A stretch of 52,854 bases of DNA from positions 1 to 52,854 of the forward strand of contig JAHFLJ010000002.1 in assembly GCA_023244935.1 (NCBI GenBank), written 5' to 3'. This DNA comes from Candidatus Liptonbacteria bacterium. GTDB taxonomy: Bacteria > Patescibacteriota > Minisyncoccia > UBA6257 > 2-01-FULL-56-20. The notes under the pieces were generated by a model, which saw only the letters and a program-made list of their open reading frames with translations, ran no database searches and was not told the origin of the DNA. Positions within the stretch are counted from its first letter, which is position 1. Each line of letters starts with the position of its first letter. Shown in pieces: positions 5,159-32,558 of the stretch. The position numbers were made by a program, and so were the translations under genes.

Positions 5159-5258
5159 TAAAAAAAATCGCACAGGGGTGCGATTTTTGGATTTTCAGAA
5201 CAATCAGAACAAGGCAAGGGCTCTTTGGAGGTAGAGTTCGGCCATTCGCCAGTTGATT
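5159..5258. repeat. junction repeat copy C: terminator hairpin plus a 17-codon relic of the 3' end of gene 6213..6977
   Basis: Identical hairpin at 5164..5187. The reverse complement of 5205..5258 reads INWRMAELYLQRALALF-stop, compared with the live end IDWRMAELYLQRAFSLF-stop. Confidence 0.8.
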
Positions 5259-6977: not shown

Positions 6978-7022
6978 GGTGCCCTCCGTTTTTTAATTTT
7001 CTATGGATAGATTAGCATATTG

Positions 7023-7484
7023 TTACGAAATCACAAATTTGTGCGAATATACGAATGATAAAAAGGACATTTGCTGTAATGGGAGAGTTGTTAGGCGAAT
7101 AGTTTTTTCTTCGTCGGTTATTATTTTTGGTTCGGGATTTTCGCCGGCAGCTTTTTTCTCGGCATGGGCGTTTACTTCATCTCTGAATTTAAGAAATTTT
7201 TCCCCGCCGGAATATATCCAGAAACTGCCATGACCATCCATTAATGATAGGCGAGTGCTTGGGTCGGTATTTCTATCAGAATAGAATTCGTTTAATAGGG
7301 ACTCCACTTCGGCTTTAATTTTTTGTGGAGCGTGAATTGAGACCCAGGGACCGGGGAAGCCGTGGTCGACACGGCCTTCGCAGGAACCGGAAGTGGGGAT
7401 TTCGAGACGATTTAATTCGGAAACTAGAGGCTTAATTTTTTCGTCTATTCCACCCCATTCATCTTTTATGTTGAGGTCTGTCAT
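7023..7484 (-). CDS. hypothetical protein (153 aa)
   Basis: ATG-initiated ORF co-directional with 6213..6977 and 45 nt upstream of it. No family was recognised. Confidence 0.5.
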   Translation of the reverse strand: MTDLNIKDEWGGIDEKIKPLVSELNRLEIPTSGSCEGRVDHGFPGPWVSIHAPQKIKAEVESLLNEFYSDRNTDPSTRLSLMDGHGSFWIYSGGEKFLKFRDEVNAHAEKKAAGENPEPKIITDEEKTIRLTTLPLQQMSFLSFVYSHKFVIS

Positions 7485-7511
7485 TTAGGTATTCTAACAC
7501 AGCGAATGCAG

Positions 7512-7583
7512 TGCTCCCACCCTCCTTCGCGCGAGGCTTCGGATGGGCAGGCAAGAATATCGGACCTTGATCAATTTCCGCCA
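7512..7583 (-). pseudogene. 3'-half remnant of a tRNA-Lys-like gene interrupted by a 32-nt REP-like insert
   Basis: The reverse complement reads GGAAATTGATCAAGGTCCGATATTCTTG-[32 nt]-TGGGAGCA. Its 18 nt AATTGATCAAGGTCCGAT and the acceptor 3' strand TGGGAGCA are identical to the intact tRNA at 7646..7716. The insert at 7520..7551 resembles the REP unit at 7963..7990. Confidence 0.6.
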
Positions 7584-7600
7584 AAGGCGGACAGGGCTTA

Positions 7601-7770
7601 CGCTCGGCAACGAATTAAAATGAAAATGAATTGTTTTGCACAGTGTGCTCCCACAAGGAATCGGACCTTGATCAATTGCTTAAAAGGCAACTGCTTTACC
7701 ACTAAGCTATGGGAGCACACTAAGCACAACGCAAACCATTCATTTTCATTTTTAATGAGCGAACCGAGCG
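7601..7770. repeat. imperfect ~40-nt inverted repeat arms (7601..7640 and 7731..7770) bracketing the intact tRNA-Lys
   Basis: Arm 1 is cgctcggcaacgaattaaaatgaaaatgaattgttttgca. The reverse complement of arm 2 is cgctcggttcgctcattaaaaatgaaaatgaatggtttgc. They share cgctcgg and an attaaaa(a)tgaaaatgaat core, aligned by eye. Confidence 0.7.
7646..7716 (-). tRNA. tRNA-Lys (anticodon UUU), no encoded CCA
   Basis: The reverse complement is GCTCCCA-TA-GCTT-AGTGGTA-AAGC-A-GTTGC-CTTTTAA-GCAAT-TGAT-CAAGG-TCCGATT-CCTTG-TGGGAGC-A. This gives a 7-bp acceptor, a 4-bp D stem, a 5-bp anticodon stem and a 5-bp T stem. The core AGCAGTTG.CTTTTAA.CAATTG is typical of tRNA-Lys. The T-loop has C instead of the usual U at position 55. 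Confidence 0.85.
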
Positions 7771-7790
7771 ATGAGGCAAAGCCTCATAAA

Positions 7791-7820
7791 GTAACTGCTT
7801 TACCACTAAGCTATGGGAGC
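7791..7820 (-). pseudogene. 5'-half remnant of a tRNA-Lys-like gene
   Basis: The reverse complement GCTCCCATAGCTTAGTGGTAAAGCAGTTAC matches the 5' 30 nt of the intact tRNA at 29 of 30 positions. Homology stops at the anticodon loop. Confidence 0.65.
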
Positions 7821-7880
7821 TCTGTGAACTAAAAAATTGTAATATAAAAATTCGAAATCGTAAAGATAAACAGAGAATAT

Positions 7881-7990
7881 GGATTCCCGCCTTCGCGGGA
7901 ATGACAAGAGGAATAAAGTACTGGATCCCGGATGAGTACTCCGGGATGACAAGATAATAAATGGATCCTTCGCGTAGCTCAGGATGGCAG
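7881..7990. repeat. three REP-like palindromic units (GGAT.CC...GG.ATGACA family)
   Basis: Units: 7881..7907 ggattcccgccttcgcgggaatgacaa, 7923..7952 ggatcccggatgagtactccgggatgacaa and 7963..7990 ggatccttcgcgtagctcaggatggcag. When translated they give the spurious IPAFAGMT / SFPRRRES type peptides. Confidence 0.8.
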
Positions 7991-8007
7991 ATAGGGGAGG
8001 GTGAAGC

Positions 8008-8038
8008 ACAAAAAGAAGCCCCCGTGCGTGGCGGGGGC
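8008..8038 (-). terminator. intrinsic terminator of the small ORF 8121..8252
   Basis: On the minus strand there is a 7-bp stem GCCCCCG / CGGGGGC with a 7-nt loop, followed by TTCTTTTTG. Confidence 0.65.
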
Positions 8039-8120
8039 AAGATGTCCCGCCAAGGAGGCGGGATTGCGAAATTTAAACCTCGGGCAAACCCTCGGTTAAT
8101 TTCGGTAAGATGACGACAGG

Positions 8121-8252
8121 TTACTTCTTGAAGAACTTCTGGATTTTGTAGATGACCTTTTCGGTCATGCCGATTGAGATGATGACGAAGGTGAGGATGA
8201 GGGTTTTGCCGAGGTCGATGTCGTCAATGTCTTTGTCTTCCTTCGGGTACAT
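8121..8252 (-). CDS. 43-aa small membrane protein (unannotated in the ORF track)
   Basis: ATG (reverse complement of 8250-8252) preceded by AAAAGGAG at ideal spacing. Translation: MYPKEDKDIDDIDLGKTLILTFVIISIGMTEKVIYKIQKFFKK, with an acidic N-terminus, one TM helix and a basic C-terminus. It has its own terminator downstream. Confidence 0.55.
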   Translation of the reverse strand: MYPKEDKDIDDIDLGKTLILTFVIISIGMTEKVIYKIQKFFKK

Positions 8253-8324
8253 GGCGTGACTCCTTTTTGCTGATTAGGATTATGACACTTTGGATAAAAA
8301 CGTCAAATTAATTTATGACAATCT

Positions 8325-8390
8325 GGATTCCGGCTCGGAGGCCGGAATGACAAAACGATAAAGAGATCCTTCGCAAGCTCAGGATGACAG
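8325..8390. repeat. two REP-like palindromic units of the same family
   Basis: Units: 8325..8353 ggattccggctcggaggccggaatgacaa and 8364..8390 agatccttcgcaagctcaggatgacag. Confidence 0.8.
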
Positions 8391-8468
8391 ATGATTAATT
8401 ACTAATAACGCATTAAGCGCAAATTAAATTTTTGACTAATAACTTAAATTCTAGTAAACTATTTCGCA

Positions 8469-21911: not shown

Positions 21912-23210
21912 ATGTATACCAATAAAAACTTATTCGATTGGTCATTCCCGCGAAGGCGGGAATCCAGAGAGTCATTCACCCTCATCGAACTCCTGGTAGT
22001 CCTCGCCCTAGTCGCGATTTTAAGCGTGGTTGTGGTGATGACTCTTAACCCGGCGGAACTTTTGAAACAAGCACGAGATTCAAATCGTCTTTCTGATCTC
22101 TCGACAATCAACACCGCGCTTAATCTGTTTTCTGCAGATGTCTCCACAGGATTTATGGGAACGTCAACTGTGGTTTATGTATCTATTCCATCAACGCTTT
22201 CGGATTGTTCAAACTTAGGACTCCCGACCTTGCCAGCGACATACACCTATAACTGTGTAACGACAGCCAATCTCCGCAACACAAACGGCACCGGATGGAT
22301 TCCGGTTAATTTCCAAAAGATATCTGCAAATTCACCTATTTCCCAATTACCGATTGATCCGATAAATACAACCTCCACCGGAAACTATTATACTTACGTA
22401 TCTGGAGGAAGTTGGGAATTAACTTCCAATATGGAATCGAGTAAGCAAAAATCAGTGACTGGAGCAACGGGAACTGATGGGGGAGTGTCATTGTCCAGTT
22501 ATGAATTTGGGAATAATCTAAGACTTATTCCTTCCGGATTATTAGAATGGAAAAGAGATTCTTCATTAGTTGGTTATTGGACTTTTGACGAAGGGAGCGG
22601 GACAACCGCATACGATTATAGCGGATATGGAAATAATGGAAGTTGGCACGGGAGCGGGAGTCATTGGGTATCTGGGAAATTCGGTGCTAGCGCAGCAAGC
22701 TTCAATGGGATGGATGATTATTATCTACTAAATGAAAAGTTTAGTTTCATACAAAAAACCGCAAATTTTACCATTTCCGTTTGGGCCAAATTTTATGACT
22801 ATACAATAGTTACCCAATATATTATGGGTAACAGTCCGGGCAATAATGAACAAGGATTTTTTCATGGCACAGTGACAGGAAAACTTAAAAGTATAGCATT
22901 CACCGCTTCAGGAGGAGGATATGTATTCGACTCAACAAGCAATCAATCTATGCCCGTAGATATTAACTGGCATAATATATTAATTACTGCAAACGGTACT
23001 TCAGCAAAATACTATATTGACGGAGTAGCTGATTCCGCGATCACCAACATAACCGCCTTTTCTAATGAACAAAGCACAAGGAATTTAACCATAGGTAAAA
23101 TAAATACTTACAATGGTGGTTTATTCAATGGAAATCTAGACGATGTACGTATTTATAATCGCGCTCTCTCCGCTGCGGAAATATCCGCATTATACAATTC
23201 AACAAAATAA
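21912..23210 (+). CDS. type IV pilin-like protein with a C-terminal LamG/concanavalin-type lectin domain
   Basis: It has the prepilin N-terminal signature FTLIELLVVLALVAILSVVVV. The C-terminal GNLDDVRIYNRALSAAEISALYN is the LamG-type hallmark. The start is ambiguous (ATG 21879 or 21912). Confidence 0.75.
   Translation: MYTNKNLFDWSFPRRRESRESFTLIELLVVLALVAILSVVVVMTLNPAELLKQARDSNRLSDLSTINTALNLFSADVSTGFMGTSTVVYVSIPSTLSDCSNLGLPTLPATYTYNCVTTANLRNTNGTGWIPVNFQKISANSPISQLPIDPINTTSTGNYYTYVSGGSWELTSNMESSKQKSVTGATGTDGGVSLSSYEFGNNLRLIPSGLLEWKRDSSLVGYWTFDEGSGTTAYDYSGYGNNGSWHGSGSHWVSGKFGASAASFNGMDDYYLLNEKFSFIQKTANFTISVWAKFYDYTIVTQYIMGNSPGNNEQGFFHGTVTGKLKSIAFTASGGGYVFDSTSNQSMPVDINWHNILITANGTSAKYYIDGVADSAITNITAFSNEQSTRNLTIGKINTYNGGLFNGNLDDVRIYNRALSAAEISALYNSTK
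21941..21965 (+). repeat. REP-like unit embedded in-frame in the pilin-like gene leader
   Basis: gtcattcccgcgaaggcgggaatcc is the reverse complement of the 7881..7907-type unit. It is translated here as SFPRRRESR immediately before the FTLIELL pilin helix. Confidence 0.75.
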
Positions 23211-31211: not shown

Positions 31212-31247
31212 AACAACCCGGACAGTCCATGGACTGTCCGGGTTGTT
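31212..31247. terminator. perfect 36-nt palindrome, probable bidirectional terminator between pyrD (+) and 31374..32099 (-)
   Basis: aacaacccggacagtcca / tggactgtccgggttgtt, followed by ttgttg on the plus strand. Confidence 0.6.
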
Positions 31248-31373
31248 TTGTTGTGATTTAGCGTCATTACCCTACTTTGCCCTATAGTCGGCAGGGCTTC
31301 CCTACTTCTCCGCCAGCTGGCGGATTTGAAGGGCGCGGCGCGGGATTGAAATAAAATAAATATCTTGTTTATT

Positions 31374-32356: not shown

Positions 32357-32558
32357 TGTCATTGTCCAACTCGATTGGACAATCTAGTATTCTTTGGTCC
32401 AACAAATGAAGATGGATTTCCGCCTCCGCGGGAATGACAAACGGGGATACTAATCATTCTTACTAATGTGTCATTCTGAGTGGAGAGAACCTGCCTGCCG
32501 GCAGGCAGGGAATCTGATTTGAATCAGTCGAGATCCTTCGCTAAGCTCAGGATGACAA
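32357..32558. repeat. four REP-like palindromic units
   Basis: Units: 32357..32386 tgtcattgtccaactcgattggacaatcta; 32414..32440 ggatttccgcctccgcgggaatgacaa; 32469..32516 gtgtcattctgag...ctgcctgccggcaggcagggaatc; and 32531..32558 agatccttcgctaagctcaggatgacaa. Confidence 0.8.

Follow-up and report, generated by a model that had tools for sequence, protein, structure and literature searches.

The window analysed here, a stretch of 52,854 nucleotides (nt) from a Candidatus Liptonbacteria genome, was found to carry a composite tRNA-Lys(UUU) locus on its minus strand (7864-7512; all coordinates refer to the whole window). Read along that strand, an intact tRNA-Lys gene is bracketed by two inverted-repeat arms and two hairpins, and these are in turn bracketed by a 5' piece and a 3' piece of a second tRNA-Lys gene. 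With somewhat better than even confidence, we interpret this arrangement as a resident gene that was broken, an inner copy that works in its place, a helix-based release of the inner tRNA, and an origin by homing or recombination. By the sequence comparisons below, the resident gene survives only as the outer pieces, its place having been taken by the inner gene.

The inner gene scored 73.5 bits with the Rfam tRNA model RF00005 (gathering score 29, model positions 1-71) and was called Lys(ttt) by ARAGORN, and it was the only tRNA that these two programs found in the window. It has the T loop TCCGATT, does not encode the CCA end, and is presumed from its sequence to be the working gene. The outer 5' piece is identical to it at 29 of 30 positions and includes a 28-nt exact repeat (BLAST E = 4e-11 against the 52.8-kb window), and the outer 3' piece includes an 18-nt exact repeat (E = 4e-5); the similarities pointed out in an earlier note on this DNA, made from the sequence alone, thus held under formal alignment. 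Pieces of tRNA-Lys were confined to 7512-7820 of the window and no integrase domain was detected among the neighbouring genes, in good agreement with the view of that note that this is not the usual integrase footprint.

Orthologous loci were fetched from other assemblies by using SecD and an open reading frame (ORF) downstream of the tRNA, ORF153, as handles. These loci share the order small membrane ORF, promoter, tRNA and ORF153, and they occur in three states. The empty state (L042 and L043) has the small ORF, a terminator, a few hairpins resembling repetitive extragenic palindromic (REP) sequences, and the same promoter, followed by the uninterrupted 71-nt tRNA-Lys gene for which the earlier note had proposed to look; L012, seen from the promoter side only, also has the uninterrupted tRNA right behind the promoter. 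The nested state (L008, L041, L009 and L011) repeats the succession of 5' piece, hairpin, arm, tRNA, arm, hairpin and 3' piece. Since this architecture recurs in independent assemblies, namely two NCBI assemblies (L008 and L041) and Logan (L009 and L011), it is not an assembly artefact. The nuclease-bearing state is represented by L007, the closest relative of the window by SecD (94% at the amino acid (aa) level), in which the same promoter is followed by a 55-nt 5' fragment of tRNA-Lys, an 86-aa GIY-YIG ORF (Pfam PF01541, E = 7e-16), the fragment again, the intact tRNA-Lys and a terminator. The promoter is nearly identical in L007, L008, L011, L012 and L042. Moreover, the flanks of the nested L011 and the empty L012 are 99.8% identical over 2.9 kb, so the difference between these two states must be recent. 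The occurrence of relatives with either the unbroken gene or a nuclease gene at the same spot points to a hotspot for selfish DNA that targets an essential tRNA gene.

The assignment of the outer pieces to the resident gene rests on both flanks. The outer 5' piece lies directly behind the promoter and leader that precede the uninterrupted tRNA-Lys in L042, L043 and L012, and downstream of the outer 3' piece, L008 has a homologue of the terminator that stands behind the intact tRNA in L007. When compared with the tRNA halves that are missing, and with the leader and trailer of the locus, the arms and spacers gave no significant match (p = 0.16-0.99). These observations are what the earlier proposal of a split resident tRNA-Lys with an inner replacement leads one to expect. 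Every part of the nested layout described in that note was found again at its minus-strand position, and the parts are given below in minus-strand reading order.

7864-7836, minus strand: sigma-70-like promoter TTTACG-17-TACAAT, belonging to the resident tRNA-Lys gene
7820-7791, minus strand: outer 5' piece, tRNA-Lys nt 1-30 (repeat D1), comprising the acceptor 5' strand, the D arm and the anticodon-stem 5' strand, with G29 changed to A
7790-7771, minus strand: mutated anticodon-loop remnant TTTATGAGGC, including hairpin 1; its last 7 nt pair with GCCTCAT
7787-7771, minus strand: hairpin 1, ATGAGGC-TTT-GCCTCAT, preceded by TTT
7770-7717, minus strand: left inverted-repeat arm, 54 nt, the leader of the inner tRNA
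7716-7646, minus strand: intact tRNA-Lys(UUU), 71 nt, by ARAGORN and Rfam RF00005
7645-7601, minus strand: right inverted-repeat arm, 45 nt, the trailer of the inner tRNA
7600-7592, minus strand: linker TAAGCCCTG, read from the sequence, identical in L008
7591-7577, minus strand: hairpin 2, TCCGCC-TTT-GGCGGA, a member of a dispersed hairpin family
7576-7552, minus strand: outer 3' piece, tRNA-Lys nt 40-63 (variable region and T arm)
7576-7559, minus strand: AATTGATCAAGGTCCGAT within the outer 3' piece, the 18-nt exact repeat D2
7551-7520, minus strand: REP-like 32-nt hairpin-forming insert between the outer T stem and the acceptor 3' strand
7519-7512, minus strand: outer acceptor 3' strand and discriminator TGGGAGCA, the same as in the inner gene

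The two arms are complementary, with a 20-nt core at 95% (z = 9.5 against shuffles; inverted repeats I1 and I2); they include CGCTCGGTTCGCTCATTAAAA and TTAATTCGYTGCCGAGCG, and the core was found nowhere else in the window. The copies start 104 and 101 nt apart, and the only promoter-like site within 7400-8200 is the one at 7864-7836, upstream of the 5' relic. ORF153 starts at 7484, 27 nt past the outer acceptor strand. A 108-aa ORF (7506-7832, plus strand; collection entry P0130, 2 contigs) spans the entire nested structure in antisense orientation and can almost certainly be dismissed as a false gene prediction; as a query for further nested loci in the protein database, it returned only the window's own entry.

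The 29-of-30 match supports the statement of the earlier note that the 5' half reaches the anticodon loop, but the break itself is better placed further on. The sequence after nt 30 (TTTATGAGGC, compared with CTTTTAAGC of the intact gene) is likely a continuation through a mutated anticodon loop. It has the derived form CTTTAT.AG in common with the L007 fragments, in which the anticodon loop and 3' stem are clear (CTTTATAAGCAAT), which puts the most likely break at about nt 39/40 instead of nt 30. On this comparison the gene was probably broken in its anticodon arm with little or none of the target lost, and the insertion in the break measures about 205-214 nt. The linker at 7592-7600 contains TAAGC, a possible second copy of anticodon-arm nt 35-39; this motif is possibly present at both junctions, the left copy being mutated and hairpin 2 intervening, and may represent a target-site duplication.

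Joining the outer pieces would give a product whose anticodon stem is mismatched, whose 8-nt loop is not that of tRNA-Lys, whose T loop is altered and whose acceptor strand is preceded by 32 extra nt; within the 3' piece, both the T loop TCCGATAT and the 3' stem strand TCTTG are slightly altered. A second tRNA match was found neither by Infernal within 7000-8400 at E <= 10 nor on this strand by ARAGORN with the intron and pseudogene options (-i0,400 and -ps). To judge from its sequence, the outer gene is dead.

The folding check suggested in the earlier note showed a strongly structured locus: 326 nt fold at -126.9 kcal/mol (z = -6.8 against shuffles). In the predicted fold, the left arm (7717-7770) pairs with 7601-7645 and the intact tRNA tips a long helix that is continuous with its acceptor stem. 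This leader-trailer helix comprises 32+8 predicted pairs, has 94-100% of its alignment cells paired and contains compensatory changes, and the inner tRNA is probably freed from it in the course of maturation. Transcription would start from the resident promoter (7864-7836) and read through the 5' relic, giving a precursor of at least 330 nt that could run into ORF153 because the window has no terminator in between. Leader and trailer would then pair to extend the acceptor stem, a double-strand-specific RNase of the RNase III type would open the helix, and RNase P, 3' trimming and the addition of CCA, needed because none is encoded, would complete the tRNA. The helix would also stop the inner tRNA and its relic halves from pairing with each other. 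RNAalifold applied to the three-sequence alignment described below returned a mispaired structure, in which the outer 5' piece pairs with the inner 3' part, because the right side of L011 is missing; this structure was not used as evidence, although it illustrates the kind of misfolding that the long helix could prevent.

Covariation was assessed on the alignment of the window, L008 and L011 with the named structure, a set of three sequences only. Paired cells made up 97.8% of the alignment, and six pairs were changed on both sides as against 0-1 in slid controls; they fall in hairpin 1 (two) and in the arms, the outer acceptor, the inner acceptor and the inner anticodon stem (one each), and one further double change in the arms was seen by eye in a shifted register. 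The stem of hairpin 1 was thus kept through two double substitutions (TG/CA in the window, CA/TG in L008 and TA/TA in L011). Its loop reads TTT, TCT or TCA in the same three loci, and the loops of the hairpin 2 family read TTT, GGCT, AGCT, AACT or AGCC; given this variation, the idea of the earlier note that both hairpins mimic the Lys anticodon with C-UUU-G loops did not survive. The inner and outer copies share lineage variants (T3-A70 in the window, C3-G70 in L008 and L011), and a GCTGC/GCAGT variant is found in L011 and L012. As to the T loop of the tRNA-Lys genes, TCCGATT, which has C in place of the near-universal U at position 55, occurs in the window, L007, L008, L011, L012, L014, L022, L028 and L042, and TTCGATT in the more distant relatives L001, L006 and L015.

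Between the window and L008, third codon positions are 59% identical in SecD, 53% in SecF and 38% in ORF153, whereas the right arm with hairpin 2 is 94%, the outer 3' piece 91% and the promoter 94% identical; the left spacer (80%) and the outer 5' piece (72%) are less so. Three processes can account for this conservation, namely purifying selection acting on the helix around an essential tRNA, conversion of the relics by the inner copy, and homogenisation of hairpins that exist in many copies. That sequence exchanges do occur is evident from the mosaic of 3' fragments across L008, L037 and the window.

As regards its origin, we propose that the locus arose by recombination or homing at a tRNA-Lys hotspot exploited in this clade by small free-standing GIY-YIG cassettes, the nuclease gene being absent here, and that gene conversion would keep the relic pieces like the working copy. 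The sequence comparisons suggest that such a history is at least as likely as transposition. It is favoured by the GIY-YIG cassette that sister lineage L007 carries at the same break, by the GIY-YIG ORFs that lie beside tRNA self-fragments in eight fetched loci (L006, L007, L015, L016, L019, L022, L025 and L029), by a viral contig that pairs a GIY-YIG ORF with tRNA-Lys(UUU), and by the precedent of SegB, the GIY-YIG nuclease of phages T4/T6, which cuts inside tRNA genes and brings about homing and a tandem amplification that includes partial copies (PMC2330249; PMC13096335). The right arm may have been copied from the leader in inverted orientation. The arms may stem from an inverted duplication, with template switching or fold-back priming taking place at the acceptor stem of the tRNA itself; this would be plausible because the right arm ends exactly at the foot of the partner region of hairpin 1 and because L007 and L008 carry inverted copies of the tRNA 3' end.

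A broader proposal, which we put forward tentatively and with some doubt, is that the window represents a nuclease-less derivative of an undescribed class of tRNA-gene-homing modules in bacteria of the candidate phyla radiation (CPR), each consisting of a small GIY-YIG nuclease, a spare intact tRNA (mostly Lys-UUU) and a conserved tRNA-like copy in which a covarying GC hairpin takes the place of the D and anticodon region. Equally tentative, and standing or falling with it, are the suggestions that such a module would survive insertion into a single-copy essential tRNA gene by bringing the replacement, and that the spare tRNA of the window would be clamped by a selected leader-trailer helix. 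The relics or hairpin copies might further give immunity to the nuclease or act as decoys for anticodon nucleases.

The earlier note had pictured a palindromic element that landed with its own tRNA-Lys. The added DNA and the inner tRNA are indeed there; a one-step landing of a discrete element is unproven, since the unit is single-copy and its tRNA is host-like. We consider it unlikely that a non-autonomous transposable element, either of the miniature inverted-repeat (MITE) type or derived from IS200/IS605, transposed in one step into the anticodon arm with tRNA-Lys as cargo. Long terminal inverted repeats (54 and 45 nt, z = 9.5) without coding capacity, a hairpin near each end, the possible 5-nt TAAGC duplication at the junctions and the presence/absence polymorphism between near-identical strains all suit such an element. 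Nevertheless, multiple dispersed copies, a hallmark of MITEs, are absent from the window, the fetched loci and the viral contigs; the arms are single-copy across the 52.8 kb, 77 related loci and viral contigs, there is no transposase nearby, and the inner tRNA carries the variants of its host lineage (T3-A70 as against C3-G70, GTTGC as against GCTGC) and not an element-specific sequence. In addition, the two hairpins are unrelated to each other and hairpin 2 comes from an independent dispersed family. Matches of the insert to phage records proved to be plain tRNA similarity and not arm copies. An origin with no foreign DNA at all, in which local duplications of tRNA-Lys (a triplet or two partial tandem copies) were followed by deletions and hairpin insertions, also appears improbable to us. 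The regular spacing of 104 and 101 nt from start to start, the lineage variants common to the inner and outer sequences, the duplication of leader or trailer together with tRNA pieces in L023 and L026, the tandem intact and pseudo copies in L015, L024, L006 and L022, the T-stem sequence of hairpin 1 in L008 and the tandem tRNA amplifications generated by SegB-type nucleases (PMC13096335) would all fit this origin. The spacers, however, are inverted and not direct repeats of each other and, as noted above, are unlike the missing tRNA halves and the local leader and trailer (p = 0.16-0.99), and three complete copies were found in no relative at the locus, so the decay of three tandem genes, which the earlier note had named as the outcome that would overturn it, is not borne out.

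If the nested architecture were instead a selected RNA device, that is, a giant cloverleaf controlling the maturation or stability of tRNA-Lys, or a decoy or insulator against an anticodon or homing nuclease, the 91-94% identity of the outer 3' piece, right arm and hairpins in the face of near-saturated synonymous sites would be explained, as would the double changes that preserve pairing in hairpin 1, in the arms and in the outer acceptor stem. The outer D arm of L008, which differs from the inner copy yet can pair, and the hairpin-substituted tRNA-Lys copies whose stem covariation is conserved across distant CPR lineages also speak for it. We nonetheless regard a device of this kind as very unlikely: the close strains L012, L042 and L043 lack the nested structure, the conservation can be put down to gene conversion from the inner copy together with hairpin families present in many copies, conservation of the outer 5' piece is no higher than 72%, and the covariation count comes from the three sequences mentioned. 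Hardly credible is the alternative raised in the earlier note that the ~210 nt are a giant intervening sequence, of group I or bulge-helix-bulge type, between the exons of a functional split tRNA-Lys. The interruption does lie in the anticodon arm, and in hairpin 1 the last part of the 5' piece is paired with the first part of the insert, a superficial likeness to a P1 helix. Rfam scans (permissive at E <= 10 for 7000-8400, at gathering score for ten related loci) nevertheless returned only tRNAs and one RNase P RNA and nothing from any intron or ribozyme family; at the borders, the predicted fold shows hairpins and the long helix and no bulge-helix-bulge motif; and ARAGORN with its intron and pseudogene options gave no outer tRNA. 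The joined exons would be defective in the anticodon stem, loop and T loop and by the 32-nt insert, the host is a bacterium, and the empty alleles show that the insert is dispensable.

Several points weigh against the homing or recombination reading that we prefer, or against parts of it. Neither integrase nor transposase nor GIY-YIG genes were found near the locus, and phmmer searches of the window with three seeds were negative for GIY-YIG ORFs. A second copy of the insert or of its arms is absent from the window, the 77 fetched loci and the viral contigs, so the mobility of the unit is unproven. The high conservation of relics and arms between the window and L008 (91-94%, as against 38-59% at synonymous sites) could mean that the outer pieces have a function, and the first unit may derive from a more complete, decayed copy, given that hairpin 1 of L008 is the exact T-stem sequence (CAAGG/CCTTG). 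The opposite strand folds nearly as well as the transcribed one (-121.6 against -126.9 kcal/mol), and the palindrome could thus act at the DNA rather than the RNA level; the RNase III step and the expression route are purely inferred. Finally, the empty allele of L012 comes from a k=31 Logan contig whose end lies 5 nt past the tRNA, and the 30-nt repeat could confuse k=31 assemblies such as those of L011 and L012, which makes L012 weak when taken alone; L042 and L043 have both flanks and are free of this problem.

The eight loci with GIY-YIG ORFs belong to a wider pattern. A metagenome scan for a tRNA 5' end followed after 66-96 nt by the same 5' end yielded 20 contigs; in about 14 of these, a tRNA gene (Lys, Ile(UAU), Met, Arg and others) is truly accompanied by fragments of itself. 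Fragments are nested on both sides of the tRNA in L023, L026 and L027, inverted repeats also flank the intact gene in L017 and L023, and in many of the fragments a GC hairpin stands where the D or anticodon arm should be. Shells of this kind, made of a tRNA gene's own fragments and often close to GIY-YIG genes, are widespread in CPR metagenomes, and our literature search found no description of nested or self-fragment-flanked tRNA genes in CPR bacteria.

A recurrent CPR module was also noted, which comprises a GIY-YIG ORF of about 85 aa, an intact tRNA-Lys(UUU) and at least one hairpin-substituted tRNA-Lys copy (L007:2095-2545, minus strand; L006:5460-5990; L022:1230-1646, minus strand; L015:11580-11970; L029:730-1170). 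Its copies have the D-stem 3' and anticodon-stem 5' strands (GCAGTTGC) replaced by the hairpin TCCGYC-NNNN-GRCGGA; they give no tRNA score, and the hairpin stem covaries between lineages. Among viral sequences, a contig labelled 'viral' in IMG/VR (L044:147-529) has a tRNA-Lys(UUU) without obvious fragments and, about 85 nt upstream of it, a small GIY-YIG ORF; it was the only tRNA-adjacent case among the 21 viral GIY-YIG loci scanned (34 returned), and the tRNA 3' half and the hairpin-substituted tRNA-Lys were not found in viral contigs. L021 (1-230, minus strand of the contig) contains a tRNA-like gene with a 5' self-fragment ahead of it and a long insertion, an intron or other insertion, after the anticodon-stem region, and this gene was missed by Rfam at the gathering score.

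Besides the three states described above, the orthologous loci showed further variation. In the empty allele (L042:321-410, L043:275-365), 7 nt separate the tRNA 3' end from the ORF153 start codon, from which the tRNA and the ORF153 mRNA are probably co-transcribed; the G-rich acceptor strand lies at the place expected for a ribosome-binding site. The region between SecD and the tRNA is hypervariable throughout, and L011 (300-1490) differs from L012 (200-440) by about 1 kb containing a Q_salvage-family gene that truncates the small membrane ORF in L011. Beyond the terminator, L008 (500-690) and L007 (2040-2095, minus strand) carry an inverted copy of the tRNA 3' end (gtgcccaaggaatcggac and cacaaagaatcggac), and L008 has an older 3' fragment (ctgcttccttgtggggta) just ahead of ORF153; by their sequences these appear to be layers of tRNA-Lys scars in both orientations. 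Two further candidates with a 5' half at contig ends, L001 and L003, turned out to be overlapping contig ends of one ordinary tRNA.

Hairpin 2 is present in L037 and absent from the same site in L008, and a second member of its family (TCCGCCAGCTGGCGGA) lies at 31309-31324 of the window in an unrelated intergenic region, adjoined by a terminator-like hairpin with a 9-bp stem (31217-31242). The same type replaces the D-stem 3' and anticodon-stem 5' strands of tRNA-Lys pseudo-copies in L006, L007, L015, L016, L022 and L024, with the loops GGCT, AGCT or AGCC and a covarying stem (TCCGCC/GGCGGA as against TCCGTC/GACGGA); the pseudo-copies of L006, L007, L015, L022 and L024 are neighbours of GIY-YIG genes. 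The 32-nt insert (7551-7520) is predicted to form a hairpin and is common to the window, L008 and L037; it shares the motif CCTTCGCG with the REP-like hairpins at 7884-7901 (repeat D3) and resembles those at 7884-7990, 21941-21966 and 32412-32554. Relic tRNA pieces of other CPR contigs also gather GC hairpins. Dispersed REP-like GC hairpins of the forms gtcattcccgcgaaggcgggaatcc, gtcatcccgg...ccgggatcc and cctgcctgccggcaggcagg were seen in the window at 7884-7990, 8328-8347, 21941-21966 and 32412-32554; three of them stand between the small-ORF terminator and the tRNA promoter and are absent from L008, and the same types recur in the unrelated CPR contigs L027 and L035. In addition, an identical 16-nt hairpin, TCGCACAGGGGTGCGA, occurs three times in the window, at 2111-2126 and 5168-5183 just downstream of ORFs ending at 2084 and 5138, and at 725-740 in an ORF-free stretch ahead of an ORF starting at 828; these copies may serve as a common terminator or form one more family of small repeats.

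The neighbouring genes encode SecD, SecF, a sigma-70-region-4/HARE-HTH protein, TrmD, ComEC, FtsW, MurG, an M16 peptidase and many proteins without a known family, and the small membrane ORF found in the relatives is also present in the window (8252-8121). ORF153 belongs to no known family and has the conserved motif CEGHxDHGFPGPW. The best named relatives of SecD are from Candidatus Liptonbacteria, Paceibacterota and Patescibacteria; this affiliation, together with the sigma-70 region 4 protein, marks the organism as a bacterium, and the gene content indicates the core chromosome of a CPR bacterium as the setting.

In the tiny genomes of CPR bacteria each tRNA usually has a single gene, so that an insertion disrupting it should be lethal; the present locus shows a route by which such a break is tolerated, in that the incoming DNA brings a full replacement tRNA. 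Its empty, nested and nuclease-bearing alleles form a natural set for studying how homing nucleases remodel essential RNA genes outside phages, and the structure accounts for the tRNA half-matches, odd hairpins and spurious ORFs that cluster near tRNA genes in annotations of CPR genomes. If the long helix is a processing signal, rRNA-style maturation by RNase III would extend to a tRNA, and if the CPR-wide module is a coherent homing system, the significance would be greater.

Among known systems, phage and island integrases use an attachment site (attB) within a tRNA gene, and the element supplies the replacement end. The present locus is similar in that an essential tRNA is the target, its function is restored and a displaced fragment is left as a direct repeat, but it has no integrase, measures only ~210 nt, supplies the whole tRNA, and leaves both 5' and 3' relics together with inverted-repeat spacers. 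Group I introns are found in the anticodon loops of bacterial tRNAs, e.g., cyanobacterial tRNA-Leu(UAA), and split or intron-containing tRNAs occur in archaea; they likewise interrupt a tRNA gene in the anticodon arm, whereas here there is neither a ribozyme core nor a bulge-helix-bulge, the outer pieces cannot rebuild a tRNA, and the 'intron' holds a real gene. Hairpin 2, the 32-nt insert and the three hairpins at 7884-7990 are, like REP sequences and MITEs, short GC-rich palindromes with other copies in the window, but the arm-tRNA-arm unit is single-copy. Leader-trailer helices of bacterial rRNA operons are RNase III substrates, known for 16S and 23S rRNA, and resemble the predicted helix in joining the flanks by tens of base pairs with the mature RNA at the tip; the difference is that a single tRNA is involved here, with cleavage inferred by us, and to our knowledge such an arrangement is not known for a single tRNA.

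The closest comparison is with SegB, a small free-standing GIY-YIG nuclease encoded in the tRNA gene cluster of phages T4 and T6 that cuts inside tRNA genes, drives homing and co-conversion, and gives rise through microhomology to tandem units of tRNA and truncated nuclease pieces (PMC2330249; PMC13096335). The relatives L007, L006, L015, L022 and L029 likewise have small GIY-YIG ORFs, encoding putative nucleases, that are flanked by tRNA self-fragments. The window differs in lacking the nuclease gene, in residing on a CPR chromosome and not in a phage, and in having a nested product with inverted spacers in place of a tandem array. The locus thus joins two known themes, selfish DNA that restores the tRNA gene it breaks and GIY-YIG nucleases that remodel tRNA loci.

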